UHGV virus genome: UHGV-1374671
Reading direction: 5' to 3' (one strand)
DNA length: 64,000 bases
DNA from: a virus
The notes under the pieces are model-generated. The model was not told the origin of the DNA. It did not search any database and worked only from the letters and a program-made list of their open reading frames with translations. Each line of letters starts with the position of its first letter. The stretch's first letter is position 1. The position numbers and the translations under genes are program-made. Below, piece after piece: positions 5,331 to 28,478 of the stretch.

Positions 5331-6487
5331 TCAGGATCAAAGAGAACAGGTGCGGTTACGCCGGATACAAGTGCGTCGGTATTGAAGAGCTGAAAGAACC
5401 GTTCCGGTATAAAAAACTGGTGTGCGACACCGAGATAAACCGTACCGAGTTCCCTGTGCAGGACTGGTCCGAGGATACGCCTGACGAGGCCAAGTATCAT
5501 CTCATAGACAACTACAAGAACATCCCGACCCTGCTGAAGGGTTTCATGATGACCAGCAGCACTCTGATCGATATGGACGTTGCCGTGTCCTACCCTGAGA
5601 AAGAGTGCCGCACCAATGTGAACCCGTTCCTTACCGTTAATGGCGAGGTCGGATTCCTGGACATGTTCAACGAGTACAGCGACCGGGTCAAGGGCCGCAC
5701 CGAGGGCAGCGAATACGTTGATTTGAAGACCAACATGCTGTGCTTCAACACGAATCCAGGAACGGCTGAAACAGAGGGCACTGACGGGGATGAGTTGATG
5801 TTCGAGCCTGGCATCATTGAGCCCATGCTCGACACGGAATTTTCTCCTGTCGGAATTGAACTCAGCACAGGTGTGGACGCCAGTCTGGACGGTATCATGC
5901 TCGCGATTGCCATGCTTACCAAGTGGCGTACTGTCATCGAGGGCAAGATCAACGATATCTACACCCGGCTCGGTCATATCACCGGGATCAGAAACATGCT
6001 CATCTCGATGCAGATGGAAAGTATCTGCGACGACTTCCGGATTGAACTGGTATCAGGAGATCCTATTCAGTGGACCGGATCCAAACGCGAACCTCGGTAC
6101 CGCGTAGGGGATGGTTACGTATATGTGAACGGCAATCCGATATACGTCAGTGGACGGTCAGCAGAGGGAGAGTTCTACATGTACATAAACCTGTACAAGG
6201 AAGGAACCGACCCGGAAGCGACAATCACTGCAGAGATGGAGACCGAGCCGAAAGGAGACTTCTCTCTTGGCATAGGCGGCGTCAAGATGACGTACAAGAC
6301 TCAGCGCGGAGTGCCTACCTATCGTGTATATCAAATTTGGCAGGAAGGCTGCATGTTTGAAATCGACATGGTACGCACCAATGACGAGGGCTTCCTGTTC
6401 CGTACACTATCCGGTGATTCCCCGTACAAGGCATATCCATACGGTACCTGTCCGAAGGAAGGCGATGAAGACAATCCGAGCTCGTAA
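5327..6487 (+). CDS. hypothetical protein
   Basis: 386 aa ORF, ATGA overlap with previous gene. Confidence 0.45.
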   Translation: MIRIKENRCGYAGYKCVGIEELKEPFRYKKLVCDTEINRTEFPVQDWSEDTPDEAKYHLIDNYKNIPTLLKGFMMTSSTLIDMDVAVSYPEKECRTNVNPFLTVNGEVGFLDMFNEYSDRVKGRTEGSEYVDLKTNMLCFNTNPGTAETEGTDGDELMFEPGIIEPMLDTEFSPVGIELSTGVDASLDGIMLAIAMLTKWRTVIEGKINDIYTRLGHITGIRNMLISMQMESICDDFRIELVSGDPIQWTGSKREPRYRVGDGYVYVNGNPIYVSGRSAEGEFYMYINLYKEGTDPEATITAEMETEPKGDFSLGIGGVKMTYKTQRGVPTYRVYQIWQEGCMFEIDMVRTNDEGFLFRTLSGDSPYKAYPYGTCPKEGDEDNPSS

Positions 6488-6561
6488 ATATTGATAGTTG
6501 TGCTACATTATTGGGTATACGGAGTATACGCAATTTGGCTTAACTAGCAAAGGACACAGCT

Positions 6562-7299
6562 ATGGCGATTCATGGGTGTCACAGTTGTGGGGTAGACATT
6601 TCACAGTACAAGAGCTATGAAGAAAGTCCATGCGCCACATGCAAGCTGACAAAAGAGCACAACAAGACTCACCGTCCGGAGCTGTTTGACAGCGGTATTG
6701 ACGTCTCCACGGCGGAAGAGCAGGAAAAACTCGAAGTACAAGAGGACAGCGACACTGTATTGCTGCTTCAGCGACTGGGATGCGGTAAAGAGGACAAAGA
6801 CAAGGCCATCCATCTCCTGATGGAGGTCATACAGAACCAGGTTTACATTACCGCGTCCAACATCATCATCAAGATGTTGAAGCTGGCGAAGATCAGTCCG
6901 ATCATGTTTGAAGTCGTTCTTAAGAAAATGCAGTTCCCGTACATGAGCTACTCGGAAATAGGGGACAGCATGAATCCGCCATGCAGTAAACAGAACGTGC
7001 TCTATCATCTTAAGCACGCGGTTGAACTGTTCCCCGACCTGAACAACGCGCTGCTGACTGACACCAGATTCAGCGCCGGCAGGTACGCACTTCAAACCGT
7101 AGCCAATCGTTACCGCCAGATACAGGGCAAACGAAAAATACACGGCTTGATTTACAGCAACGACCCGGCTATGCGTGCCCATGCCATGACTGAGTTGAAT
7201 GCGATACTGTCTGCTCCGTTCATGATAAGTGACGCCATTGTAGATTTTGATCTGTACACCAAAGACGAGGAACATAATGAGCGCACCGCTGCGAATTGA
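6562..7299 (+). CDS. hypothetical protein
   Basis: 245 aa ORF after 74 nt intergenic gap. Confidence 0.4.
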   Translation: MAIHGCHSCGVDISQYKSYEESPCATCKLTKEHNKTHRPELFDSGIDVSTAEEQEKLEVQEDSDTVLLLQRLGCGKEDKDKAIHLLMEVIQNQVYITASNIIIKMLKLAKISPIMFEVVLKKMQFPYMSYSEIGDSMNPPCSKQNVLYHLKHAVELFPDLNNALLTDTRFSAGRYALQTVANRYRQIQGKRKIHGLIYSNDPAMRAHAMTELNAILSAPFMISDAIVDFDLYTKDEEHNERTAAN

Positions 7300-11057: not shown

Positions 11058-11146
11058 CGAAAATAGCTTAAAATCGCCCACTTTTAGGGCATAATAAGGT
11101 GGATGGAATTTAACATCCGGTTGCTGGGACCTTAACCGGCTGATCT

Positions 11147-11179
11147 GCTCCTTCTCATCGAAGGAGCGTTTTCATTTTT
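11147..11179 (+). terminator. putative Rho-independent terminator
   Basis: GCTCCTT-ctcatcg-AAGGAGC stem-loop followed by GTTTTCATTTTT, about 90 nt after the stop at 11057. Confidence 0.55.
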
Positions 11180-11249
11180 ACACTGGCTTGATTTGATCGG
11201 TGATTCGCCGACCGTGTTGATCGTCACAAAGCGGTACTGAAGTCGCAGC

Positions 11250-11430
11250 ATGACGAACTGGATCCTGGTCAGGAACCGTTCTGAGAATCAGACGCTCATC
11301 CTTCCCAGCCTCGCTTGCGGAGCTGGGAAGGAACATCGTCTCTCAAAGAGTAAACTCTTCGAGTGAACTCTTCGAGTGAAGCGACACGCTTCAGATTCCC
11401 AGAACTTACTTCCGACCAGGATCCATATTT
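11250..11430. repeat. imperfect ~30 bp inverted repeats flanking ~150 bp that contain a 10/12 bp hairpin and a 2.5x tandem 13-mer (GAGTGAACTCTTC)
   Basis: GGATCCTGGTC...GTTCTGAGAATC at the left end is mirrored by GATTCCCAGAAC...GACCAGGATCC at the right end; CCTTCCCAGC/GCTGGGAAGG hairpin; tandem repeat 11357-11392. Confidence 0.5.
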
Positions 11431-11465
11431 ATACTGCGTGAAGCCAGATTTTCTGATTTGAGTTG

Positions 11466-12683
11466 TCCTATGCTTCGTAGGATTGAATGTTTAGTGCGTG
11501 AATGCATTGAAATTACAATCGTTCTTTCACACGCAGCGAACGGGATCCCTTCGTTTCCTTCCTCGGTAACGGCACGCCGTTACCGGATACGTCAACGAAA
11601 GGGATCCCTCACGCTGCATTGTTCATTCTCAGACTGCAAGAAATCAGAACAGCCGGTACGTTGGGGCTGTAAATCCAATGAGCAAACTGGAACTTTGCAT
11701 ATGCTTCGTATGCTGATGAACCTGGTAACTGACACCAGTAAGTATCGATGTGACATGGGCTGCGCTCTGAGTCGCGATCTGTTCACCGGGCTTAAAACTC
11801 GCAGCCTGGCGGCTGCGTGTTCACAGCCACGTTCACAAACGCGACTCAGAGCGCTTTTCGCCCTTGTCTTGAATATGTCACCGCCATCAATAGCAGTTTG
11901 CATTTTCTACTCCAGATATAAAATCCTCTATGACCCGGTATGTGGTTCGCATACAAGCCCAGCAGTCAGATTTGCCTGTTGAAATGTGAAACCCTGCGAG
12001 AACCATGAACCTTCCTGGAAGTGGTTTTCCAGGAAGTTCATTTCGTCTCGCTGTCTCGGGTTTCAGATAGAGGTGTGTTTGTTGAATTTCTGTATGATTC
12101 GTACAGGTGATGTAGTGTACGACTGTCCATGTAAACAGCATGGTCGTTACCACTATTACGACTCAACTGGACCTACCGTCTGGCGCCCGCTACCTTAACC
12201 GGAATGCGAGGCGCCTGACGACGGTCCATTGAGTCTACATAGTTATAACAACCGCTTCAGAACAAACACCGTCCTTACTGATTTTGAATTTTGCCGTGCT
12301 TCGCGGCAATGTGTGCGGCACCAAATCCAGTGTCGGAAACAAGGTTCTGCATACAAACCGGCTCCCTCCTGAATTTCTGCCTTAGATGCGGGGATCGCCC
12401 CCGCATCTACAGCCAAAATTCAGCGGGTTCCGGCTTGACTTTGAACCATTAGAAAATCAGTCGATTACTTGAATTCTTTGGTGCTTCGCCAAAGTGCGCG
12501 TATGTCTGGAATACGTGTTTAAACAAGAATGAGCTTGCATCAGTACGACGACCAGTCATGCAGCGCCTTCGTCTTCTTTCAGAAGTACAAAGGACGCATG
12601 CAGACTGGCGTCTCCCTATCCCCAAGCATATTCTTCAGAAGTAATCAAATTACGCGAATTGACTAGGTCAGTGCTTCGCTGAC
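11466..12683 (+). repeat. array of five stem-loops with invariant 7-nt loop TGCTTCG and covarying 5-6 bp stems
   Basis: tccta-TGCTTCG-tagga (~11466-11482); gcata-TGCTTCG-tatgc (~11697-11713); ttgccg-TGCTTCG-cggcaa (~12291-12309); ctttgg-TGCTTCG-ccaaag (~12476-12494); gtcag-TGCTTCG-ctgac (~12667-12683). TTGAAT/TTGACT-like hexamers lie 4-8 nt upstream of three of the five. Confidence 0.7.
12384..12408. other. very stable 11-bp perfect hairpin (TAGATGCGGGG-atcgc-CCCCGCATCTA) without U-tract
   Basis: seen directly in sequence. Confidence 0.6.
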
Positions 12684-12858
12684 ACGGGAAAACGTAGCGG
12701 CATCCCTGATGGAGTAATGACGTTCATTTACCTGCAGGATACCAGCCTACACGAACACATCGATCCCTTGGCTTCCGTCGAGCTTCGACGAAGCTCAGAC
12801 TCCACCAAGGAGATCTTATGTTATTCGTTACGGCCTGGACACCTGCTGGCAATTCATC

Positions 12859-13239
12859 TCATTTTGAATTCGCGTTCTTTCCGGCTTCCCGTTTCTCGAA
12901 TTCAAGCGCGACAGCGGGAATCGGCATGTTCAGCTTTCTGCGTTGCTCACAGGCCTCCAGAATGCGTATGCGGAAGTCCTTGGCGATGTCCGCCAGCGTA
13001 TCCCATCCTCTGATCCCGTACCTGAAATAGTGTGAGACAGTGAGCTGGGTGTCGTTGTACTTCTCGATAGCCTTTCCAAGCGGGAAGATCACGTCCCGCT
13101 GGCCTTGCCTTCCACGAAGCACGATATCGCCGTTCACAGCCTCCAGTAAACCGATTCCACCAAAGGTCTGCGTGGAATCCTGCAGACTGGAATATCTGTC
13201 TGCTTTCGGCTTTCCTGCTTCTTTTTTTACATTGTCCAT
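12859..13239 (-). CDS. hypothetical protein, translationally coupled downstream of terminase large subunit
   Basis: 126 aa minus-strand ORF starting 11 nt after the TerL stop. Confidence 0.4.
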   Translation of the reverse strand: MDNVKKEAGKPKADRYSSLQDSTQTFGGIGLLEAVNGDIVLRGRQGQRDVIFPLGKAIEKYNDTQLTVSHYFRYGIRGWDTLADIAKDFRIRILEACEQRRKLNMPIPAVALEFEKREAGKNANSK

Positions 13240-13250
13240 GCTGGCGCTCC

Positions 13251-15086
13251 TTATATGAACTGGTTGTCAGGTGTTATTACGGATGCTCTCAAATCCACGG
13301 CTTCCTTGAAGCGCTCGAAATCCCCTCTGGGACCAAACACTTCGTCGTCCATGATCTTGTTGTGGTTCTCGTCGAAGTCCAGTACGGACGCGTCGTATCT
13401 GGAGCCGATTTTGGGATATGCTCCGAAGTGGTCCCATATCTGGGAGCATCCGAAGTTGACGGCATGCGCGAAGTCGTCAGGCGCTCCCGGCTTCTTGATG
13501 ATCAGCACGACGGTTTCGTTCCCCATGGACTTTCTGGGATCCTCCCGAAGGGCCAGCAAATCGCGCTGGAAGGCCTTCTCATCGGTTTCGGCGAATCCGG
13601 GCAGTCTGACCCGGGTTGCCTTGATCGACATCACTGTGATCGCCAGAGAGCGGCTTTTATCAAGGGTGTAGTAGTACAGGTCCGACTCACGCATCCCGGT
13701 ATGGGGAACCATCACATCCCCGGCACGGGGCCTGACGTAGTTGATGGGAATGACGATCAGCCCGGGAATGTCCCGCAGCCCCTGGTGGTTCATGATCTCC
13801 AGCCGGGCGAACCCGGCCCCGCCGTTGTCGTAAGTGAAGGCGTCGGCACCGGTTCCCCGTATCCAGTCCATGATCTCGTTCGCTTCATCGGTAGGAGTGA
13901 CGCCGTGCTTGATGCGCTTCCCGTACAGCACGTCGATCACGTCCGAATCCCGCCGCAGCCCCAGCACGGCATACGCGGTGTACGAATCGCTGACCATGGA
14001 ACCGCCTGACCAGTCCACCGCAACCGTGATGTACGAGTACAGATGCTTCAGCCCACGTACATCGGCAGGACGCTGCACGGAGATGTCATGCGTGGCCTTC
14101 TGCAGGTCGGACATGGTCAATGGGCTGGTGGCCGCATCGTAGGGCCACCCGAACACTTCGTTGTACAGCGCCAGCGGCGCATAGTTCTCGATCTTGTCCA
14201 GCAGCTTGTTCCACTTGTCCTGCGACAGGATGTGAAGCGGGTGCACTGTCTGCGAGATGTGATATCCGGGAAACGACAACTGGCGTTCCGGTCTGGCGTG
14301 CACGTATCCGCCGTTCTTGGGAAACACCGGCTTTCCGCAGTGGGCGCATACCGGGCCGTGCTTGCCGATCATCTTCAGCAGGTGCTGTTCCGGGTTCGGG
14401 ATGTTGAACTTGTTGCAGTGCTCGCAGCGGATCACCCACTCGGCCTGGCTGGAGCGGTTCCACAGCAGCGCCAGTGTGGTATCGGTGGTTTTGGGTGTTC
14501 CGGTGTACCGGGCGAAGCCCCAGAAAATCGAGGCCGACATCATCTCGTTACCGATGTCAATGAACTCGTACTCAATGTCTTGCACTTCATCCCACGTGGT
14601 GCTGGCCACGTTCGAGATACCGCGAGCCCGATCCGGTGACTCGAACATATGTTCTGCATAACACATGGATCCATTTTTAAATTCGCGTAAAGCCATTTTC
14701 TGCAATTCCGTGCTCTGAATGAACTGGGTTCGGATAGGGCAGGAGGAAAGGAGGGGTCTGTAAACAGTATTCACTAAACGCTGCACCTGGTCCGCTCTGG
14801 GCTGGATCAGCACTGTGTGGTAGTAGGGAATCAGCATGTTCCTGAGTCCGATATCGGCGGATATGCTGTACGACTTACCAAGCTGGCGGCCGCACATGTA
14901 AACAGAATGGGGAGACTGGACTGTGCTGAACATCGGTGCGAACTGATAGTGCAGATGCAGCGTCATGGGCTTTCCATTCAGCCGGAACAAGCATAGGAAA
15001 GGGATCAACGTCTTCAGTGATCCCTTCCTGATCTTATCGTAGGCATCCGCAAAGATGCTGTTCAGTTTTGTCGTTGAATTCGTCAT
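13251..15086 (-). CDS. terL: terminase large subunit (ATPase + nuclease)
   Basis: 611 aa; Walker A-like CGRQLGKSY; Walker B-like WDEVQD; ARYTGTP; C-terminal RNaseH-like nuclease region (VAVDWSGG, DNGGAG); CxxC...CxxC. Confidence 0.85.
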   Translation of the reverse strand: MTNSTTKLNSIFADAYDKIRKGSLKTLIPFLCLFRLNGKPMTLHLHYQFAPMFSTVQSPHSVYMCGRQLGKSYSISADIGLRNMLIPYYHTVLIQPRADQVQRLVNTVYRPLLSSCPIRTQFIQSTELQKMALREFKNGSMCYAEHMFESPDRARGISNVASTTWDEVQDIEYEFIDIGNEMMSASIFWGFARYTGTPKTTDTTLALLWNRSSQAEWVIRCEHCNKFNIPNPEQHLLKMIGKHGPVCAHCGKPVFPKNGGYVHARPERQLSFPGYHISQTVHPLHILSQDKWNKLLDKIENYAPLALYNEVFGWPYDAATSPLTMSDLQKATHDISVQRPADVRGLKHLYSYITVAVDWSGGSMVSDSYTAYAVLGLRRDSDVIDVLYGKRIKHGVTPTDEANEIMDWIRGTGADAFTYDNGGAGFARLEIMNHQGLRDIPGLIVIPINYVRPRAGDVMVPHTGMRESDLYYYTLDKSRSLAITVMSIKATRVRLPGFAETDEKAFQRDLLALREDPRKSMGNETVVLIIKKPGAPDDFAHAVNFGCSQIWDHFGAYPKIGSRYDASVLDFDENHNKIMDDEVFGPRGDFERFKEAVDLRASVITPDNQFI

Positions 15087-15316: not shown

Positions 15317-15703
15317 TTGAGCAGAACACTCAACAACAAAGTATGGGCACTGATCGGTCTGCTGATCGCAGTGCCCGTTTTCATTTCACCGGTAACGGTT
15401 GTCCTGACCGTCGGAATCATGCTGTACTGCCGCGCCAACATGGCGCGCGCACTGAACCCGTGGATCAAATCCGGGCTCATGTTCGTACTGGCTGTTCTGA
15501 TGCTCAGCGTACTCAGCGCTTACGACCCGACGTGGAAGATCTGGTTCTGGACCGTGAACACGGCACTCATGCTGACCGTCTGCATGCACTTCATCGGGGG
15601 CATACTGGATGAAGCCAGGAACAGAAGGGAAACCAGAAGACTCGACTCGGAGGTCGTGGATCCTGAGTGGTACAATCCGAAGACCGGTAAGTGGGAACGA
15701 TAA
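15317..15703 (+). CDS. small integral membrane protein (3-4 predicted TM helices)
   Basis: 128 aa; long hydrophobic stretches then charged C-terminus. Confidence 0.45.
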   Translation: MSRTLNNKVWALIGLLIAVPVFISPVTVVLTVGIMLYCRANMARALNPWIKSGLMFVLAVLMLSVLSAYDPTWKIWFWTVNTALMLTVCMHFIGGILDEARNRRETRRLDSEVVDPEWYNPKTGKWER

Positions 15704-15929
15704 CCTGATTCAAATGCAGGGCTCTGGAGGCCGGGATAGGTCTTACCCATACAATGAGAGGGGTAACGACCTAAGTCGCGCCACAGGGCCCTTTCCGTTG
15801 AATTCTGGGCATTTTGGACGACTACTGACGAAATTCATTGCAACGACAGTATCCGATCATGTCATTTTCAACATGCCTGGCAACAGGCGGAGAACAACAA
15901 GAGAAAACCATGAAGAAATTCACTTAGTA

Positions 15930-16700
15930 ACGCCTAAATTAGACGCGTCTAAAAAATTTTTACAAGAAAGAAGTGATCAAGAAAGAACTGGGTGCGAGAA
16001 TCCCCGCACTGTCCACGGCAAATCATCTGAGGATCCTTGCGAGCACTGCTTGGTTCACGGGGCTTGAGGGCAGTTCCGGCATAGCCCGACAAGACCCCCA
16101 CAAGTACGGTATACCCGGCACGCCTAGTGTACTTAAATAAATTTAAGTACCTTAGTCGCGCCCGTGCATACGTACACGTGAGAGCCAGTCCAGCCATGGC
16201 GGAGCTCTCCCCTCCCCCATGACCAATCAGCGCCGCAGGCTCTCGAGACGATTTCCGCCGGGACGGCGGAAATTCTCGCCGCGTAGCGCGCGCTAGCGCG
16301 CTGAATGCGCACGCGCAGGCGCGATAGAAGATCGCGCGATCTTCTACGCGCGCCTCCCCGGCGCATACCTGCGGATCTGCGCACGCATTATGCGTGCGCT
16401 ACCCGCATCGCAGGACTTGCGCGTGCGCATTATGCCTGCCGCCCGAAATACCGCACGCCTTGTAACACGCGAAACTGGTGATGCGCTTGCGCATACCGCG
16501 CAGCGCGCGAGGATGAAGCCCGGTCCAGCGCCTGACGAAGCCTCCAACCTGCGGTATACCCACCCTTGCCCCTTCGGGCACAACCGCTAGCGCGGTTGCC
16601 AAGGCATTGGGGATAACGCAGGTTTCGGCTTCTAACCCAGCCATGCCTGCTGACGCAGGATAGCTGGGAGCCAGAGGGTGGTTGGAAGAGAAAACTGACG
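15930..16700. repeat. palindrome-rich, GC-rich non-coding region
   Basis: TTAGACGCGTCTAA (~15938); GTACTTAAAT-aa-ATTTAAGTAC (~16129-16150); TTTCCGCCG-gga-CGGCGGAAA (~16251-16271); GCGCGCTAGCGCGC; AGAAGATCGC/GCGATCTTCT 20-bp perfect palindrome (~16326-16345); GCGCACGCA-tta-TGCGTGCGC; ATGCGC-tt-GCGCAT; direct repeat CTTAGTCGCGCC at ~15767 and ~16146. Confidence 0.6.
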
Positions 16701-16717
16701 GTCACATCAGGTGAAAC

Positions 16718-17120
16718 GCAAATAGAGCGATTTTGAGGCCCACATAGCTGTCACCCCATGTCGTTGCCCGGTTTTGAGACCGATCGCCATCAGAAGGGCC
16801 TCAGAATTGATTTATCTGGTATTCGCACCGGATACCTGACCCGGCTTTCGCACCACCATCAGCTGATCCAGGTCTAAGCGCCGGTGAAAACACCGGATTC
16901 AGACGCCGGAAAACGACCGATTCAGCGCCAGGAGAACCACCGGATTCAGCGACCCTGTTCACGACTGTTAATCCCTGCGCCAGGTTTTCATGCCAGGTTT
17001 ATCGGGATTCAAATAGAGCGATTTTGAGGCCCACATAGATCGACCCCTAGTGAGAGCCCGTTTTCGACCACGTCGTCGATCAGAGACAGTCAGGAATCGA
17101 TTTATCGGGCATTTCCATCA
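16718..17120. repeat. two ~110 bp direct repeat units starting CAAATAGAGCGATTTTGAGGCCCACATAG, plus 3x ~21 bp tandem repeats and 3x GATTTATC(G/T)GG (iteron-like)
   Basis: units at ~16718-16830 and ~17010-17120; AACACCGGATTCAGACGCCGG / AACGACCGATTCAGCGCCAGG / AACCACCGGATTCAGCGACCC at ~16886-16952. Confidence 0.65.
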
Positions 17121-17286
17121 AGTTGTTGATCCGGCAACTGTCCATCAGACCCGTACCAGGATGAAACCGGGTCGCCGACATGCGCTTCTCAACCGGGTTC
17201 AGGTTGTAGTGTATGTGCACGTCCGACGACCAGGTTCACGAGCCTGGTTATTTAGTCATAAAAAGTTTAACATAAGGAGGTTATAC

Positions 17287-18420
17287 ATGTTCGAGAAGAT
17301 ACTGTTCATGGCTGACTGTCACATCAGGTCACGCACATGGACGAACTTCATGCAGCTCCAGGGAGACGCCTACTGCGCGCTGCAGAAAGTGTCCGATCAG
17401 CTGGCCGCCATGAAGAGCCCGCCGAAGGTGCTCGTAGTCGGAGGAGACTGGTTCGACGGAAACCGACCCAGTTCGTGGGACGTCAGGGAGACGTTCCGGT
17501 TTCTGAGTCAGTTCGAGCTGGTGTTGTTCGTGAACGGGAATCATGACAAGGTCGAGCCTTCGTTTCTGGAGATTCTCCAGGGACTGGGCTGTACGAACGT
17601 CAGGGTCGAGAATCTGCAGAACCAGCCCGGTCGCGTACTCCAGTTCGATAACCAGTTTTTCATAGCTGGACTGAATTGGGTGGAGAACGCTGATCAGCTG
17701 AAAGCGGCGATAAGGGAGATCGCCGTGGAGTACAAATCGCTCGGTACAGACCAGCCGCTGTACCTGGTTCTGCACACCAGCTTTCAGCATCTGCTCGGTT
17801 ACGAGGGCTCGTACAAGCTCACGATTCAGGACGTCGAGGAGATCTTCGGAGACAGCCAGGTTCGTGTGCTTGTGGGAGACATTCATACCCGTGACCTGAC
17901 TCACATCAGCAACATGAACGGAAGCTACGTTCACAGTCCAGGATCGCTGTATCCCAGGAGCTTCGACAAGGTGAACGAGGAGTACGCCGTGTCGTTGATC
18001 GACACGGGCACGGGAGAGATCAGGGACCTCGACTGTCGTGTCAGGCTCTACTACCGATACGATTACAAGAGCCGTGACGAGCTCGATCAGCTGGTCGAGA
18101 TCGCGAAGCAGGAAAGCAAGGACCTTCCACTGCCGCCGTTTATCAGGGTCGTCGTTCCGAAGGATTCTGAAGTCAAGATTCTTCAGACGGACTACGAGGA
18201 CGTCGTCATCCAGGTCGTAACCGAGGATGTTGAGGACCAGGAGGAAGTCACCGCCAGACAGCTCCAGGAACAGTACACGCTTGCCCAGGCCGTTGCCGAG
18301 GAGGCGAACGAGGACGACGACATCAGGGATCTCGCCGTGGCGCTGATTTCAGCAGACGACCCGCTGGCCGAGATCGAGGGCTGGTTGAAGTTCTGGAATG
18401 TCGTCAGATCAACGATATGA
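17287..18420 (+). CDS. sbcD: SbcD/Mre11-like metallophosphoesterase nuclease (T4 gp47-like)
   Basis: AGGAGG RBS; phosphoesterase motifs ADCH, GGDWFD, NGNHD; followed directly by Rad50-like gene. Confidence 0.8.
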   Translation: MFEKILFMADCHIRSRTWTNFMQLQGDAYCALQKVSDQLAAMKSPPKVLVVGGDWFDGNRPSSWDVRETFRFLSQFELVLFVNGNHDKVEPSFLEILQGLGCTNVRVENLQNQPGRVLQFDNQFFIAGLNWVENADQLKAAIREIAVEYKSLGTDQPLYLVLHTSFQHLLGYEGSYKLTIQDVEEIFGDSQVRVLVGDIHTRDLTHISNMNGSYVHSPGSLYPRSFDKVNEEYAVSLIDTGTGEIRDLDCRVRLYYRYDYKSRDELDQLVEIAKQESKDLPLPPFIRVVVPKDSEVKILQTDYEDVVIQVVTEDVEDQEEVTARQLQEQYTLAQAVAEEANEDDDIRDLAVALISADDPLAEIEGWLKFWNVVRSTI

Positions 18421-20458: not shown

Positions 20459-21736
20459 ATGAAAATTGTACTGGCCGATACAGTGATCACTGTGTTCGGG
20501 TGGCTCAATGTGATGGATCAGATCGGAAAGTACAAGCTGAAGATCCGCAAGACTCCTCAGGAGATCCGTGAGGAGAAGGAGATCAGACGACAGCGGTACG
20601 GAAGCGACGCCCATAAGGTGAATCCTATGCGGTACGAAGATCGCACCGTGATCGCCAAGAATCCGTCTGATCCTACCATCGCATACTTTCTCCCAGGGCT
20701 GTGGCCACGGGTGAAAGGCTATCTGGATACGCAGAAGATTACATACGAAATCGAGGACAAAAGGGATCCTTCCATCAGGCCTGACCCGGACTATTCAAAA
20801 CTGGCCGGAGCGACATTGAGACCAGGACAGGATACCGCCTTGGCCCTGATTACGTCGTTGGATTGTGGGCTAATAAATACCAGCACGGCATGGGGAAAAA
20901 GCCATCTAATATCTTTTATATGCAAGGTTTATCCCACGCTTAACATTGTCGTCACCACTGGATCCACCACGGTGGTCTCAACTCTGTACGAATATCTGTG
21001 CAAGCAGCTGCCCGGCCAGGTCGGTTACCTGTACGCCAGGGGCAACACCACGCATGGAAAACGGGTGATTGTGACCACGCTGAAGTCGTTGCCGAACATC
21101 TCTCCTGAGCGCGTCCAGTTGCTGTTGTGCGACGAGTGTCATGCCTGCGGAGACAACGAGGCCGGCAGGGCAGTGTCCAAGTTTGTGTTCAGCCGCAGAT
21201 TTGGATTCTCCGCCAGTCCGATCCGCAATGACGGCTCCAGAATCGTTATGGAGTCCATCTTCGGACCTGAGATCATGAAGATGACCTACCAGGAGTCTGT
21301 TGACGTTGGAAACATCGTTCCCATGAAGTACCTGATGCTGCCTTGTCACAAAGGGCCAACCAGCTTGTGCGACAAGCCGGGCATGGACGATGTATTCAAG
21401 AAGCGCTTCGGGTACTGGTGCAACTACAACAGGAACAGGGCTATTGTGGAACTGGTCTACGACATCAAGCAGGTGTATGAGGGCCAGATTTTGATAATGG
21501 TCGGTTCACTGGAACACGCAATTCAGTTGCACATTATGCTGCCCTGGTTCAAGGTCGCTCATTATGGCGCAACTGACTTGGACGAACTCAAGAAAAAGAA
21601 GTTCTCCAAAGACAAATACTCCGACATTGACTTTTCTCAGTACAAGATGAGCCAGAAGCAGCTGGACATTATGCGGGCCGCCTTTGCAAAAGGTACGCTC
21701 AGGTACGTGATCTGCACCAAAGTGTTTAAACAAGGT
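20459..21736 (+). CDS. SF2 DExH-box helicase, exon 1 (interrupted by group I intron)
   Basis: motif I TSTAWGKSH; motif II LLCDECHACG; motif III FSASP; ORF runs into a stop at 21760 before motifs V/VI, which resume in the ORF at 22024. Confidence 0.7.
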
Positions 21737-22023
21737 AAACATCAATGCCTCGCAGCATAGGAATGTGCTGTCGTGAGCCGCTTAATTGCTGGGAACTCCG
21801 ACCGGGTAATGCCGAGGACAATCAGCAGCGAAGTCCTGAAAAGTAGGAAACGTTCAACGACTATCCCTGCGGGGAGTACACGCAAGTGCGTGGAAACAGC
21901 GGCCACCCAGAACGGGTGAAGATATAGTCTGACCTTGCATGGTAACATGCAGCTGGATTAACAATCCGGGCTGAGCGTAACGAACTCAGTTGAACACAAA
22001 AGGTTGATTTTAAAGCACTTACG
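21737..22023 (+). ncRNA. group I self-splicing intron (ORF-less, ~290 nt) in helicase gene
   Basis: P/Q/R/S-like elements: TAATTGCTGGGAACTCC, AATCAGCAGCG, GTTCAACGACTATCC, GAAGATATAGTCTGACC; exon 1 ends on T (ggt); G immediately precedes exon 2. Confidence 0.7.
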
Positions 22024-25895: not shown

Positions 25896-26921
25896 ATGCA
25901 AGACTTAGGCGTCGTCGACGTCAGCATGCGGCACTTTGTCGGGCCGGTTCACATCCGGGTATGGGAGCCCGGAGATCCGTTCCCGACACTGGGGCCTTCC
26001 GTTGGCGTTGACACAGAAACCGAGCTGATCACGGACACGGTGAAGGACCCGCCGGTAGTTGTTACCGGCGTGTTCGACCCTGCGAACTCGAATTGCTGGA
26101 TCGTTTACTGGCAGCATACCGCAGCGTTCATGCGGGAGCTGAACAAGCGCGACATCCAGCAGAGGTACTTCAACGTCGGGTTCGACGAACAGGTGCTCGA
26201 CAACGAGGACGAGGAGAAGAGCCTTCTGACGGCTGTCGACGCAAGGCGGGTGCGTGATATGCAGATCCGCATTCACCTGCACGAGATCGCCACGCTGGGT
26301 TGGATCCGAGGCAATCTGTACAACCTGGCGGACTGTGCTCTGCACTTCCTGAATGTGACGCTGGACAAGGGTGATCCGGACGACTACGAGAACTCTGCAC
26401 GAATGACGTTTCGGCGGCATAATAAAGATGGGAGCGTTTATCGCATAACGGATGAACAGGCCAAATACCTGTGTTATGACTGCGCTTCCACCTGGGGTCT
26501 CGGAGAATCGGTACCGGAACAGCCAACCGAGGTGGAACATACCAAGGGCATGATCGTCCTGGCACACATCAGCACCAACGGCATTCAGGTCGACCCTGTA
26601 GTGTTCGACGCCATGGAGGAGAAGCTGTTCAAAGCCAGGGACGAGGCCAGGCTTCGTCTGCTGGCGTTTGGATTCCCAGATCCGTACAAGGACGTCAAGA
26701 AGGAGGCCGCAGCCGAGCGTCAGCTTTTCTACTCGGAATACAAAAAGCTGTGTGAATCGGCAGGACTGGAGTGCCATCTCGGCATGGAGGAACAGACACT
26801 CGATGACGAAGACGAAACCGTCATTCAGGTTCCTAAAATACCAAAGAAGGACTCTCTCAGGCTGATGGTCTGCTACCTGTATCGATGCTTCACGTTCGTA
26901 CACAATACCAAGAACGCGGCG
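25896..26921 (+). CDS. polA: family A DNA polymerase, exon 1 (3'-5' exonuclease domain)
   Basis: Exo I VGVDTETE; Exo II/III-like YLCYDCAS; frame hits a stop at 26924 immediately before an intron core. Confidence 0.7.
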
Positions 26922-28478
26922 TAGGTACCTTTGCGGCGTGAGCCGCATCGAAGAAGAAAGTGAATTGCTGGAAGCCTAAACCGGGAGTGTAGCCCGGCAT
27001 GGTAATCAGCAGCCAATCAACCGGATCGCTAAACTGGATTCAACCATCCAGCATGCACCGGGGAAAAGGTTCAACGATCATCGGGGTGTCCACCTGATAA
27101 GCGGCCCCGTTAGCGTGCAAGCGTGCGCGAAGTGCTCCGTGACGGGAAACCGTCACGATGATATGATCTGTGCTACCCGAAAGGGATAGGAAGCCCCAGC
27201 CTGATCAGCTGGATAAGCCGGGTGAGCGTAGCGAACTCACTTGAACAAGAACCATGAGGTCTTATGAATCGACGTAAATTCTCACATTTACGCTTGATAT
27301 TGTTGACGTACATGCTATATTAGAACCAGGTACTATAATACACGGAAGTTTTGAAGTGATAAGCAGAGCTCATACAATCAAGCTGAAACCCAATAAAGCA
27401 CAGGCGATCATGCTGGCCAAGACGGCCGGTACTGCCAGGTATGCCTACAACTGGGGATTGGCCAAGTGGAATGAGCTGTACGAAGCCGGTGAGAAGTGCA
27501 GTGCTTACAGCCTGATGAAACTTTGGCAAGAAGGCAGACCTGACTGGGCATTGGAAGTGGGCGCTGCGTGTTTGCAGCGCCCGTTCATGCACCTGGAAGG
27601 CGCCTTCAAAGCGTTCTTCAGAGGACAGCGTAAGCACCCAACCTTTCACAAGAAGGGTTTGCGGGACGGGTTCTACGTCCCGAATACTCATTTCAAACTC
27701 CGTGGTAACAAGGTTCAGCTACCCAAGTGCGGACTTGTCAGAATGACCGAGCGTATTCGTTACGCGGATGTGAAGGTTGTTTCTTCGGCAGTCAAGCACC
27801 AGGCAGACGGCTGGTATGTCGTAATCCAGGTCGAGCTTGAAGAGGAACACAGAACCGAATCCGACTCTTTTGTCGGAGTCGATGTCGGATGTACCCAGCT
27901 CGCAACAGCGAGCGACGGTACGACCTGCTGCTCACCGGCCAAGCTCAAAGACCTGGAACGTCAGCTGAAACGTAGACAGCGCTTGCTGGCACGCAAAGCC
28001 AAGGGCTCCAACAATCGAGCGAAAGCGAGATTGAAGGTAGCCCGTACCTGGCAACGAATCAACAATATCAAACAAGACACAGCTCACAAGTTCACTGCAC
28101 TCATTGCCAAGAACCACGGCACTGTTTGCATTGAAAAGCTGGATGTGAAGAGTATGCAATCAGGAGACAACGCCCTCGTAAGAAAGGGCGTGCATAACTC
28201 CTGCATGTCGGAAATCCTGAGACAACTCAAGTACAAGTGTAACAACTTTATTGAAGTTGACAAGTATTTCCCGTCCAGTAAGACTTGTTCGAACTGTGGG
28301 CACATAAACGCTGAACTGACCCTTGGGGATCGCACGTATAATTGTCCGGGCTGCGGACTGAAAATCGACAGGGATCTGAACGCAGCGTTGAACCTCCGTA
28401 AGGAGGGTCTGAGGATTTACACGGTGGGTCACACCGGCAGTGCCTGTGGAGTTGCCCGGTAACGGGCGGCGCTGAAGC
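26922..28478 (+). mobile_element. IStron-like element: group I intron ribozyme core fused to an IS605-family (TnpB-only) module, inserted in the DNA polymerase gene
   Basis: ribozyme core ~26950-27290 shares P/Q/R/S elements with the helicase intron (GAATTGCTGGAAGCC, AATCAGCAGCC, GTTCAACGATCATC, GATATGATCTG); IS left-end-like hairpin CGTAAAT-tctcac-ATTTACG (~27268-27289); tnpB 27356-28462; right-end hairpin GCCCG-gtaa-CGGGC spanning the tnpB stop; the polymerase frame reopens right after a TGA at 28473-28475. Confidence 0.7.
27356..28462 (+). CDS. tnpB: TnpB (IS605 OrfB-family RuvC-like RNA-guided nuclease)
   Basis: 368 aa; RuvC-I GVDVG; CSNCG...CPGCG zinc finger; RuvC-III DRDLNAALNL. Confidence 0.85.
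   Translation: MISRAHTIKLKPNKAQAIMLAKTAGTARYAYNWGLAKWNELYEAGEKCSAYSLMKLWQEGRPDWALEVGAACLQRPFMHLEGAFKAFFRGQRKHPTFHKKGLRDGFYVPNTHFKLRGNKVQLPKCGLVRMTERIRYADVKVVSSAVKHQADGWYVVIQVELEEEHRTESDSFVGVDVGCTQLATASDGTTCCSPAKLKDLERQLKRRQRLLARKAKGSNNRAKARLKVARTWQRINNIKQDTAHKFTALIAKNHGTVCIEKLDVKSMQSGDNALVRKGVHNSCMSEILRQLKYKCNNFIEVDKYFPSSKTCSNCGHINAELTLGDRTYNCPGCGLKIDRDLNAALNLRKEGLRIYTVGHTGSACGVAR

Follow-up and report, generated by a model that had tools for sequence, protein, structure and literature searches.

The sequence studied here belongs to an uncultivated gut phage with a genome of ~176 kb, of which a stretch of 64,000 nt (the window) was analyzed. Between the end of a gene for a 128-aa membrane protein (position 15703) and the start of sbcD (17287, confirmed by translation and a match to the Pfam family Metallophos), the source assembly's gene caller placed no gene in L054, L055, or L058. 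TerL is encoded on the minus strand (13251-15086), and downstream of the block the plus strand encodes SbcD, SbcC, a helicase, and a DnaB-like helicase in a replication operon with the order sbcD-sbcC-helicase-DnaB-like helicase-polA. The initial annotation had placed the block between the terminase gene, on the opposite strand, and the replication module, which is accurate but for two small plus-strand genes that separate the block from TerL. Two co-oriented transcription units flank the block. Its features are collected in Table 1.

Table 1. Features of the gene-free block and its sbcD-proximal edge, in window coordinates
Feature	Positions	Strand	Basis or remark
Gene-free block, from membrane-protein gene to sbcD	15704..17286		three assemblies without gene call; no family match
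Island A, motif (..CCTAAGTCGCGCCACAGGGCC.TTTCCGTTGAATT..GGGCAT)	15745..15825		conserved versus L058
Island B, 14-nt palindrome TTAGACGCGTCTAA, A6T5 run, and a pair of CAAGAAAGAA(G/C)TG repeats with 15-nt spacing	15935..15990		
Small GC hairpin followed by U/C-rich tract (terminator-like)	15992..16009	-	
Island C, ~190-nt imperfect hairpin, apex GTACTTAAAT-AA-ATTTAAGTAC	16040..16236	-	fold energy, relatives
GC-rich (0.65) perfect-palindrome cluster, GCGC/CGCG and GCGCATTATGC cores	16237..16529		lineage-specific (by comparison)
Island D, 139 nt, six helices (14-bp hairpin and multi-branch domain)	16530..16668		modeled on - (candidate strand)
Relic copy of sbcD 5' coding end, matching 17312-17353	16695..16739	+	conserved in L058
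Repeat unit U1, 29-nt box 1 (CAAATAGAGCGATTTTGAGGCCCACATAG), variable core, box 2 (GAATTGATTTATCTGG)	16719..16845	+	
Tandem array, internal dyad in each copy (CCGGTG..CACCGG)	16877..16951	+	Tandem Repeats Finder (TRF)
Repeat unit U2, box 1 as in U1, box 2 GAATCGATTTATCGGG	17010..17135	+	
Hairpin ACCAGG-TTCACGAG-CCTGGT, AT-rich tract, ribosome-binding site AAGGAGG, and sbcD start codon	17222..17289	+	direct sequence reading

The earlier observation that the block holds no convincing ORF is borne out. Besides the absence of gene calls, its nine longest ORFs matched no Pfam family and had no significant match among PHROGs (two weak ones had E values of 0.027 and 0.032), and in a six-frame comparison with L058 all frames were equally "conserved," all contained stops, and none was favored. 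Protein coding was rejected on these grounds, as was a small ORF in Island A (encoding a "GPFP" peptide), which has no start codon in L058 and has both prolines mutated in L055. A search for tRNA and tmRNA genes found none, and against Rfam 15 the block had no match at the gathering threshold and, at relaxed thresholds, nothing more than chance matches owed to hairpin shape, for example to miRNA precursor models (38 bits, with a cut-off of 168 bits). The block DNA matched nothing in 50,697 phage records, a tblastn search with SbcD found no match among known phages, and TerL is 22-26% identical to its counterparts in characterized phages. All motifs of the block are unique within the window, including at the other operon starts, and a genome-wide promoter or terminator motif was rejected on this basis.

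For comparison we used two relatives of the same lineage, with SbcD 95% and 74% identical (the latter is L058), and about 15 more distant ones, all from one family of uncultivated phages of the gut and rumen with genomes of ~165-190 kb. Most of the relatives examined that share the arrangement of TerL pointing away from a unit that leads to sbcD carry, upstream of sbcD, a non-coding stretch with a long AT-centered hairpin and (CG)n-type elements; among relatives the block varies in size from 0.44 to 1.6 kb.

Palindromes, repeats, and their turnover

Nine perfect inverted repeats (stem at least 7, center at most 8 nt) occur in 15930-16700, at 15939-52, 16129-50, 16251-73, 16285-302, 16288-301, 16319-37, 16325-46 (22 nt, no spacer), 16379-99, and 16581-98. 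This is a density of 11.7 per kb versus 1.09 per kb in the rest of the window, and 1000 dinucleotide shuffles gave a mean of 0.54 and a maximum of 4. The "at least seven perfect palindromes of 14-22 bp" first reported are therefore present if short centers are allowed, but only three are spacer-free and at least 14 nt long. GCGC and CGCG are enriched 8-10-fold in the block; a role as restriction-site decoy was rejected because neither is notably avoided outside it. The GC-rich cluster between Islands C and D is only 35-60% alignable to L058, with none of its perfect palindromes kept there, and seven of the nine inverted repeats are missing from this relative. The L058 counterpart of the cluster still folds (z -5.1 and -4.5), and one hairpin survives through compensatory changes (ATTTCCGCCG/CGGCGGAAAT in the window versus ATCCCC(T)GCCG/CGGCGGGGAT in L058). 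Motifs of the (CG)n and GCGCATWATGCGC types recur in L006, L015, L059, and L061-L064.

Two direct repeat units of about 110 bp had been noted, and these are real: an exact 29-mer occurs at 16719 and 17010 only (chance expectation none; longest repeat in shuffles 11), and U1 and U2 align at 71-75% over 107-129 nt. Their boxes are conserved in L055 and L058 and the interior varies; a T-to-C change in box 1 is present in both L058 units, a case of concerted evolution. The paired boxes probably bind protein. A scan of a viral contig collection with the 29-mer returned nothing, and the 17-mer box pattern gave six matches in viral contigs, at chance level and with no flanking similarity. The three reported GATTTATC(G/T)GG motifs comprise two exact copies, which are the 3' boxes of the repeat units, and a third with a mismatch, a count that by itself does not exceed chance (1.4 expected). 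Similarly, the three tandem "~21-mers" do form a tandem array, of 3.2 copies, but with a period of 23-24 nt; L058 has one copy, with a compensated stem CCGGCT..AGCCGG.

The relic upstream of the repeat units is identical to the sbcD 5' end at 17/18 nt and at 75.6% over 45 nt (E 1.6e-4). It includes a hairpin (16695-16710) that is terminator-like on the bottom strand, and the bottom strand of 16695-16712 is complementary to sbcD mRNA 17312-17329. An independent duplication in L006 took in 93 nt of upstream sequence and 12 nt of sbcD. From these alignments, part of the block is evidently the product of a duplication that took in the sbcD 5' end, and comparison with the relatives indicates rapid turnover of the tandem array and of the GC-rich perfect palindromes, both of them lineage-specific. 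The combination of perfect palindromes and iterons, on which the initial annotation had rested its case for an origin or packaging site, thus proves to be the least conserved part of the block, with seven of nine palindromes absent from L058 and the 23-mers reduced there from three copies to one.

Conserved islands and their folds

As judged from the alignments, the conserved parts of the block are Island C, Island D, and the U1/U2 boxes, not the conspicuous palindromes and repeats. Islands C and D are 90-97% identical to L058, compared with about 75% for coding sequence, and the neighboring non-coding DNA is unalignable. A 1.1-kb tract of TerL is likewise 90-100% identical to L058; because the phage group is mosaic, the high identity of C and D may partly reflect recent recombination.

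Island A is 77-88% identical to L058, versus 25-50% for the sequence next to it, and is unique within the window. L059, L062, and L063 carry related motifs (..AGAGGGCCGTTTCCGGCCAATT..), and these Island A relatives have the look of intrinsic terminators (GGCCG-TTTC-CGGCC, then AATTTTT). Island B, the AT-richest spot of the block, is partly conserved in L058, and in L062-L064 two copies of TTTCTTTCTTT have the same 15-nt spacing as its repeats, in opposite orientation. For the small hairpin that follows, L058 keeps the pyrimidine tract and not the hairpin; L059 has a (CG)n dyad and then T6 on the bottom strand.

Island C folds far better on the bottom strand. The RNA minimum free energy is -117.1 kcal/mol (z -10.5, 11 G.U) for this strand versus -81.5 (z -7.3, 2 G.U) for the top strand, and DNA parameters give -52.3 (z -7.1) versus -34.8 (z -2.8). 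The bottom-strand fold contains 10-11 G.U pairs, with a matching bias in relatives, and the top strand has A.C at these places. Among transition mismatches between the arms in eight phages, 41 are G.T on the bottom strand and 15 on the top strand (p=7e-4), and the bottom-strand excess is seen in six of the eight. Island C is about 90% identical to L058 with seven compensated pairs, and analogous hairpins lie upstream of sbcD in L059, L061, L015, L008, L004, and L017, with L004 and L017 differing, between identical flanks, by five compensated changes in a perfect 15-bp stem. A covariance model of C has a single match in the window and does not retrieve the L059 and L061 hairpins at E ≤ 1, so that their homology rests on position, CACGTGTAC-type arm sequence, and shape. 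Complementarity between the arms of C is 82% across 22 nt and falls to about 70% across about 140 nt; a protelomerase target (a hairpin-telomere resolution site) needs a long perfect palindrome and was rejected for this reason. C may lie beside sbcD simply because the operon begins with this gene.

Island D is 96-97% identical to L058, with fold z scores of -7.4 and -6.6. Its covariance model (R1) has a single match in the window and finds a full-length homolog in L061 (36.8 bits, E 2.6e-5). In an alignment that was fitted to the model, and in which one distant sequence, L061, supplies most of the changes, the 51 pairs are 93.6% paired and 20 of them have changed on both sides; none of 500 shuffles matched this observation, and slid controls gave 2-5. 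Such strong covariation indicates that the base pairs of the six helices have been held by compensatory change between the lineage of the window and L061. Read on the bottom strand, the apical loops are all GNNA or GNA, including a C-GAA-G core, and the strand balance is 2 G.U versus 0-2 A.C. In L061, hairpin 1 of D has a TGCTTCG apex, as do hairpins of L001 that lie ~30 nt before ribosome-binding sites, which points to a top-strand promoter or 5'-UTR role and not to an origin; only 48 nt separate D from the sbcD start codon in L061. A scan of viral contigs with the Island D pattern returned nothing.

The conserved parts thus look like single-strand folds, judging from the covariation of D and the G.U/G.T asymmetry of C, a pattern unlike that of double-stranded palindromes bound by protein. 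We also considered a miniature or IS-derived mobile element, and rejected it because there are no terminal inverted repeats, no typical target duplication, and no related flanking repeats, and C and D each have a single match; the block is present in L055, which is without the TnpB insertion. An invertible TerL cassette was rejected as well, there being no long repeats shared by the two non-coding blocks that flank it.

Candidate roles of the block

The block is most likely a region for replication start or control, of a type so far uncatalogued. More specifically, and tentatively, we read it as a control or origin region that heads the replication operon and would work through single-strand folds, and, with equal reserve, as the lineage-expanded form of a conserved non-coding module in that position that probably contains an origin. 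The link to replication is drawn from the position beside replication genes, the uniqueness of the locus, and analogy with known origins. The working parts would be the ~190-nt hairpin C on the bottom strand, the 139-nt Island D, short GC-rich dyads, and the paired U1/U2 boxes, and the folds would form upon opening or transcription of the DNA. Leftward transcription or local unwinding may expose the G-rich bottom strand, on which the hairpin and the six-helix element would then fold into a priming or assembly signal, after the pattern either of an R-loop or structured-primer origin, such as ColE1 RNA II or T4 oriF, or of a single-strand initiation signal, such as G4 oriC or plasmid ssi. Palindrome-stimulated duplication and template switching, which would have copied the sbcD 5' end as well, may have added the perfect GC palindromes, the 23-24-nt array, and the U1/U2 duplication recently, and these additions would be evolving fast.

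Transcription- or R-loop-primed origins include the ColE1 RNA II origin, oriF and oriG of phage T4, and the T7 primary origin. The block resembles them in being a non-coding region beside replication functions, with a G-rich, highly structured strand over several hundred nucleotides and a putative function via a single-strand fold and not a symmetric duplex site; it differs in lacking any sequence or Rfam similarity to them, and its near-continuous 190-nt hairpin has no counterpart there. Single-strand initiation signals are represented by the complementary-strand origin of phage G4, the primosome assembly site of phiX174, and the ssi/PAS sites of plasmids. These too are clusters of stable hairpins of 100-150 nt that act on one strand, and the GNA/GNNA apical loops and C-GAA-G core of Island D, on its candidate bottom strand, are comparable; however, these signals come from single-stranded phages and plasmids, whereas the block lies in a double-stranded DNA phage of ~176 kb. 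PAS sites in phages have been mentioned (PMC11707656).

What stands of the origin first proposed is a singular, gene-free, cis-looking region heading the replication module, together with a non-coding module kept upstream of sbcD in most relatives examined, which fits an origin or control region; the signature features by which it was recognized are not conserved. Like iteron origins (lambda ori, plasmid oriV), the block has three tandem 23-24-nt repeats with internal dyads, spaced at about two helical turns. An iteron origin is expected to conserve at least three repeats of ~17-24 bp in helical phase, which the array does not do, and next to the repeats there is no AT-rich unwinding element (GC is 0.53-0.55 at 16800-17100, and the only AT-rich patch, at 15950-15990, is about 900 nt away). 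No initiator gene of a Rep- or O-like family was recognized among the neighbors (membrane protein, SbcD), and DnaA boxes form no cluster: the block has one DnaA-like 9-mer with a mismatch, and the window has fewer such sites than the mean of the shuffles. The cumulative GC skew of the window shows no turning point at the block; the skew of the top strand is negative in the block and positive in the plus-strand genes from sbcD on.

In the main alternative, which is possible if doubtful, Islands C and D with the GC element between them form a conserved core (about 0.4 kb in L061, about 0.7 kb in the window) that is a structured ncRNA transcribed leftward and antisense to the flanking operons, acting as a regulator or decoy (for example, on sbcD or the membrane-protein genes) and not as an origin. 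Covariation over several helices is typical of RNA, the bottom-strand G.U pairs of C recur as a bias in relatives, and the reversal of GC skew is the trace expected from leftward transcription. Bottom-strand hairpins with U-rich tails at 16710-16695 and 16009-15992 resemble terminators, as does the dyad with T6 in L059, with overall counts at chance, and the complementarity to sbcD mRNA would suit an antisense RNA. However, no promoter for a leftward transcript was found in the block, and in L061 the 48-nt gap would put one over the sbcD start. Neither the gathering threshold nor relaxed ones yield an Rfam family, perfect palindromes without a spacer are explicable in DNA but not as RNA hairpins, and the G.T asymmetry equally fits single-stranded DNA or strand-biased C-to-T mutation pressure. 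Top-strand transcription enters with the unlikely alternative of an ordinary transcription boundary, in which upstream terminator(s) would precede the promoter(s) and operator(s) that serve the replication operon, with a long, structured 5' leader after them; it is no more probable that this leader is processed by RNase III and that U1/U2 are duplicated promoter or operator copies. This reading accords with the place of the block between two co-oriented transcription units, the terminator-like relatives of Island A, the origin of U1/U2 from a duplicated sbcD upstream region and 5' end (with a similar event in L006), the TGCTTCG apex in L061, and the resemblance of the box 1/box 2 pairs to dyad operator sites. 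Yet sigma-70-like promoter matches are at or below chance in the block and absent from its top strand, C folds clearly worse on that strand, with A.C for G.U, no other operon start in the window reuses the motifs, and a 139-nt element at 96-97% identity is far larger than a promoter or operator.

A packaging site or physical genome end (pac, cos, or terminal-repeat boundary) of the adjacent terminase is improbable, and the pac function first suggested finds no support. As at SPP1 pac and lambda cos, a repeat-rich non-coding region lies near a terminase gene, here about 0.6-2.2 kb upstream of that for the large subunit, and the nearest database relatives of TerL are mostly from Herelleviridae-type phages, which have fixed ends with long terminal repeats. 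Such sites, however, share the strand of the terminase small/large-subunit operon and lie inside it or a short way upstream, and the block is on the wrong side and strand, with TerL on the minus strand beyond two plus-strand genes; no small subunit was recognized (orf126, considered for this role, has no solved-structure relative by sequence), and TerL is only 22-26% identical to characterized phages. Three contigs (L056, L057, and the 186.7-kb L060) start within the module, but their breakpoints differ (17143, 17196, and 358 nt upstream of sbcD in L060) and fall in the hypervariable part of the block, in itself assembly-breaking; of about 11 genome-length contigs one starts in the module, and about ten others of the family end at scattered places. 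Contig ends were judged uninformative as a guide to physical ends. Very unlikely indeed is that the block is mostly non-functional debris, made of decaying tandem duplications of the sbcD 5' end, self-propagating palindromes, and possibly the leftover of a mobile element. The relic, the rapid turnover of GC palindromes and array, and the variable block size would fit, but conservation in Islands A, C, and D and in the U boxes far exceeds that of the sequence around them, D covaries, stems are compensated in C and in L004/L017, and the terminal inverted repeats, target duplication, and second copy in the window expected of an element are missing.

To our knowledge, hardly any origins or control regions have been mapped in large uncultivated gut phages. 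The analysis yields a family-wide, positionally conserved non-coding module with two concrete elements, a strand-specific 190-nt hairpin and a covarying six-helix element. If the module is an origin, it would belong to a structured-strand type with no description so far among large double-stranded DNA phages; if an RNA, it would be a new phage RNA class, antisense between packaging and replication genes. It also counsels caution, in that the most conspicuous palindromes and "iterons" of such blocks can be evolutionarily the youngest and least informative.

Long interrupted palindromes are substrates of SbcCD, as studied with E. coli lacZ::pal246 (PMC3315005, PMC4245961), and the sbcD-sbcC products fall in PHROG families annotated as palindrome-specific endonuclease subunits. 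Island C is comparable, being a long inverted repeat that forms a hairpin on one strand and directly adjoins sbcD-sbcC, and the duplications around it are of the type that palindromes provoke; its arms, however, are about 70-82% complementary, whereas the model substrates are perfect. It is a long shot that the hairpin is a programmed fragile site, cut by the phage SbcCD when extruded during replication. In that event a defined double-strand break would lead to recombination-dependent replication or concatemer formation, and this activity would have left its scars in the duplications around the hairpin and in the young perfect palindromes.

A gene-free module ahead of sbcD

The window comes from an uncultivated phage, and an identical stretch is found on a 176,044-bp ENA metagenome scaffold (L054; window = L054 + 7286). 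Across 50,697 phage records, the best identity of TerL (terminase large subunit) is ≤26%, and neither SbcD nor the DNA of the block at 15704-17286 finds a match; the phage is far removed from anything cultivated. Scanning viral and metagenome contigs with TerL recovered 53 loci with TerL 42-99% identical, and an SbcD search identified two informative same-lineage relatives, L055, whose SbcD is 95% identical and whose block measures 1579 nt, and L058 (74% identical, 1599 nt), as well as a group with SbcD 45-49% identical (L059/L060, L061, L062, L063, and L064). The order of leftward TerL, rightward small ORFs, and then sbcD, sbcC, and helicase is kept among relatives, with an interval of 0.44 to 4.9 kb ahead of sbcD; in the window, SbcD is followed by SbcC, a superfamily-2 helicase, a DnaB/KaiC-like helicase and, farther along, PolA. 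A singular gene-free module has been retained in front of the replication operon across the phage family.

The claim that the block holds no convincing ORF stands as far as these analyses reach: no gene is called there in three assemblies, and family searches and a six-frame comparison concur. ORFs of the block have no significant family matches, and against the 74% relative L058 no reading frame is favored, all frames being equally "conserved" and containing stop codons. Several other identities were rejected for the block. It matches no known RNA family; a reused promoter or terminator motif is ruled out, as every motif of the block is unique within the 64-kb window; a multi-copy mobile element was not borne out; and a restriction-site phenomenon was discarded.

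Features of the block and of the surrounding window
Feature	Position	Strand	Remarks
Second non-coding block	11058-12858		other side of TerL cassette
TGCTTCG-apex hairpins	11472, 11703, 12298, 12483, 12673, 12782
TerL	13251-15086	minus	PHROG 675, E 1e-38; Pfam GpA_ATPase
TerL tract	13400-14550		codons ~167-517
126-aa ORF			after TerL
54-aa ORF		plus	between TerL and block
128-aa membrane protein	15317-15703	plus
Gene-free block	15704-17286
Island A	about 15745-15825
Island B	about 15935-15975
Terminator-like hairpins	16009-15992, 16352-16333, 16710-16695	bottom
Island C	16040-16236
GC-rich palindrome cluster	16237-16529		poorly conserved
Island D	16530-16668
Conserved hairpin and start of unit U1	16690-16820
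Relic of sbcD 5' coding end	16695-16739
Conserved unit U2	17005-17115
SbcD	17287-18420	plus
Group I intron	21727-21952		Rfam RF00028, 88 bits, E 4e-21
Group I intron match, sub-threshold	26873-27189		26 bits, E 3.7e-4
Candidate IStron-like insertion	26873-28462
IS605-type TnpB gene	27356-28462

Conserved islands and recent repeats

The description of palindromes and repeats in the initial annotation is confirmed with small corrections. The first half of the block does carry a palindrome cluster, with nine perfect inverted repeats (stems 7-11 bp, centers 0-5 nt) where 1000 shuffles give a mean of 0.54 and a maximum of 4; their density is 11.7 per kb versus 1.09 per kb elsewhere, GC reaches 0.65, and GCGC and CGCG are 8-10-fold enriched. 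In the second half, two direct repeat units, U1 and U2, are present, with an exact 29-mer common to both and 71-75% identity over 107-129 nt. The tandem array is real (3.2 copies), but its period is 23-24 nt and not ~21 nt; two of the three reported GATTTATC(G/T)GG motifs, which are not significant taken alone, are exact, and the third appears only with a mismatch.

When the block was aligned with L055 and L058 and identity was plotted along 9.8 kb, conserved islands (77-97% identical) stood out amid otherwise unalignable (20-45%) non-coding DNA, with sbcD/sbcC coding DNA at ~75% in the same comparison. L058 retains just two of the nine, the apex of island C and one hairpin of island D. The L058 counterpart of the GC-rich cluster nevertheless folds significantly (z -5.1 and -4.5), with at least one hairpin kept via compensated changes, and the tandem array is down to one copy there, its stem compensated. 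Because palindromes and array are so poorly kept in L058, these eye-catching features are young and fast-evolving: the conspicuous palindromes and repeats are recent.

When U1 and U2 are compared across three genomes (six copies in all), only two boxes prove conserved, box 1 (AATAGAGCGATTYTGAGGCCC...) and box 2 (GAATYGATTTATCGGGCAT, which repeats box 1 imperfectly in inverted orientation), around a variable interior. Within U2, GAGGCCC is invariant despite having no pairing partner, so the constraint is on sequence and not on pairing, as is the case for protein-binding sites; a T-to-C change common to both L058 units marks concerted evolution. Just ahead of U1, the start of the sbcD coding sequence has left a relic (17/18 nt match; 75.6% over 45 nt), and in L061 merely 48 nt separate island D from the sbcD start codon. 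U1, array, and U2 are therefore best explained by a duplication of the sbcD upstream region and 5' end that was inserted between D and sbcD. The relic has a parallel in L006, in which a 105-nt direct repeat (6482-6586 and 7164-7268, 95% identical), made up of 93 nt upstream of sbcD and its first 12 nt, arose independently and flanks the hairpin and GC-element module of that phage on both sides. Rearrangements of this kind are a known consequence of palindromes (PMC3315005).

Folds of islands C and D and possible functions

Island C forms an imperfect hairpin of ~190 nt centered on GTACTTAAAT-AA-ATTTAAGTAC, picked up by a 286-nt self-inverted BLAST match, by a chance Rfam match of miRNA-precursor shape and, as a third independent signal, by folding. 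It is strongly strand-asymmetric, with RNA parameters giving -117.1 kcal/mol (z -10.5, 11 G.U pairs) for the bottom strand and -81.5 kcal/mol (z -7.3, 2 G.U pairs) for the top, and DNA parameters -52.3 (z -7.1) and -34.8 kcal/mol (z -2.8), respectively. Relative to L058, 55 pairs of the stem are invariant and seven are changed on both sides. Upstream of sbcD, L059 and L061 also have a long hairpin, with arms sharing CACGTGTAC-type sequence, and long hairpins occupy the equivalent position in L015 (50-nt arms), L008 (53-nt arms), and L004 and L017 (perfect 15-bp stems); L042 and L006 have hairpins at this place too. In a fold-independent alignment of arms from eight phages, mismatches include 41 G.T on the bottom strand versus 15 on the top (p = 7e-4), a bias present in six phages and reversed in L042 and L006. 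The stems of L004 (6556-6589) and L017 (8964-8997) diverge at five positions, each with a matching change on the other arm, between flanks that are identical (left, 40 nt) or one base different (right), a sign of very strong selection for pairing or else of palindromes being symmetrized at the DNA level. Given asymmetric fold, G.T bias, and compensated stems, the hairpin is maintained as a bottom-strand structure, whether in a leftward transcript or in DNA that has been unwound; a mutation pressure from C to T that favors one strand could contribute to the asymmetry. Top-strand GC skew, which is below zero within the block and above zero in the plus-strand genes that begin with sbcD, points the same way, to leftward transcription or to a bottom strand that is often single-stranded.

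Island D, 96-97% identical in L058, folds into a 14-bp hairpin and a five-helix multi-branch domain (z -7.4 and -6.6). With a covariance model built on three close sequences, a full-length homolog is found in L061 at the same place and in the same orientation (36.8 bits, E 2.6e-5). The four-sequence alignment, itself fitted to the model, has 93.6% of its cells paired and 20 of 51 pairs altered on both sides, most changes coming from L061; none of 500 shuffles gets this far, and slid controls give 2-5. Signals for the strand of D are mixed: wobble counts are balanced between strands, and on the bottom strand every apical loop reads GNNA or GNA, but read on the top strand the first hairpin of L061 ends in a TGCTTCG apex, typical of a hairpin family that in L001 sits ~30 nt ahead of ribosome-binding sites. 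The conserved parts of the block are single-strand folds, one of them clearly bottom-strand.

As to function, which we infer, our tentative preference is for a replication-start or control region working via strand folding, of the R-loop/structured-primer or single-strand-initiation type. An origin had been proposed from the palindromes and iteron-like repeats; the idea is possible, but on grounds other than those features. No DnaA-box cluster and no GC-skew turning point occur at the block. A structured non-coding RNA from the bottom strand is a close rival, only slightly less favored. It is unlikely that the block is an ordinary terminator, promoter, or 5'-leader boundary. Scanning for promoters and terminators gave results at chance level, and the only terminator-like hairpins scored in the block are on the bottom strand.

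Hairpin C might be a programmed substrate of the adjacent phage SbcCD, which we consider very improbable. The proposal of a pac site is unsupported, and a packaging site or genome end is very improbable. Three independent contigs begin inside the module, L056 at 17143, L057 at 17196, and the 186.7-kb L060 at 358 nt before sbcD; all three breakpoints lie where the block is hypervariable and likely reflect assembly breakage there, and the ends of about ten further genome-length contigs are scattered, so contig starts give no conclusion on physical ends. That the block is debris, alongside islands so well conserved, is scarcely credible for all its fast-evolving sequence.

Observations elsewhere in the window

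The second non-coding block is more structured than the main one, with RNA fold z-scores of -11.8 and -15.2 (11060-12000) and -11.1 and -11.0 (12000-12860). Its six hairpins have a constant TGCTTCG apex and differing stems; TTGA(A/C/G)T or TTGG precedes five of them and TGGA the one at 11703. The block has no Rfam match, and the region in relatives has no called genes except a doubtful 170-aa call in L054. L001 and L002 have the same motif array in syntenic position, and there RBS-like sequences follow ~30 nt after the motifs.

Downstream, a helicase gene contains a group I intron; the ~240-nt intron segment is missing from L055 and L058, in which the helicase is continuous (519 and 518 aa). 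The sub-threshold intron match lies directly before the TnpB gene, at a position where L055 has an intact 607-aa PolA, and the two may form an IStron-like insertion splitting polA. Within TerL, one mosaic tract is 90-100% identical to L058 at the DNA level, with flanks at about 75%; its residues are 95-99% identical in L019, L020, L027, and L049, in which no neighboring window genes were detected. The tract starts at aa 167/168, the exact site of a ~1.9-kb insertion in TerL of L004 and L005; a homing element may have left it as a co-conversion tract.
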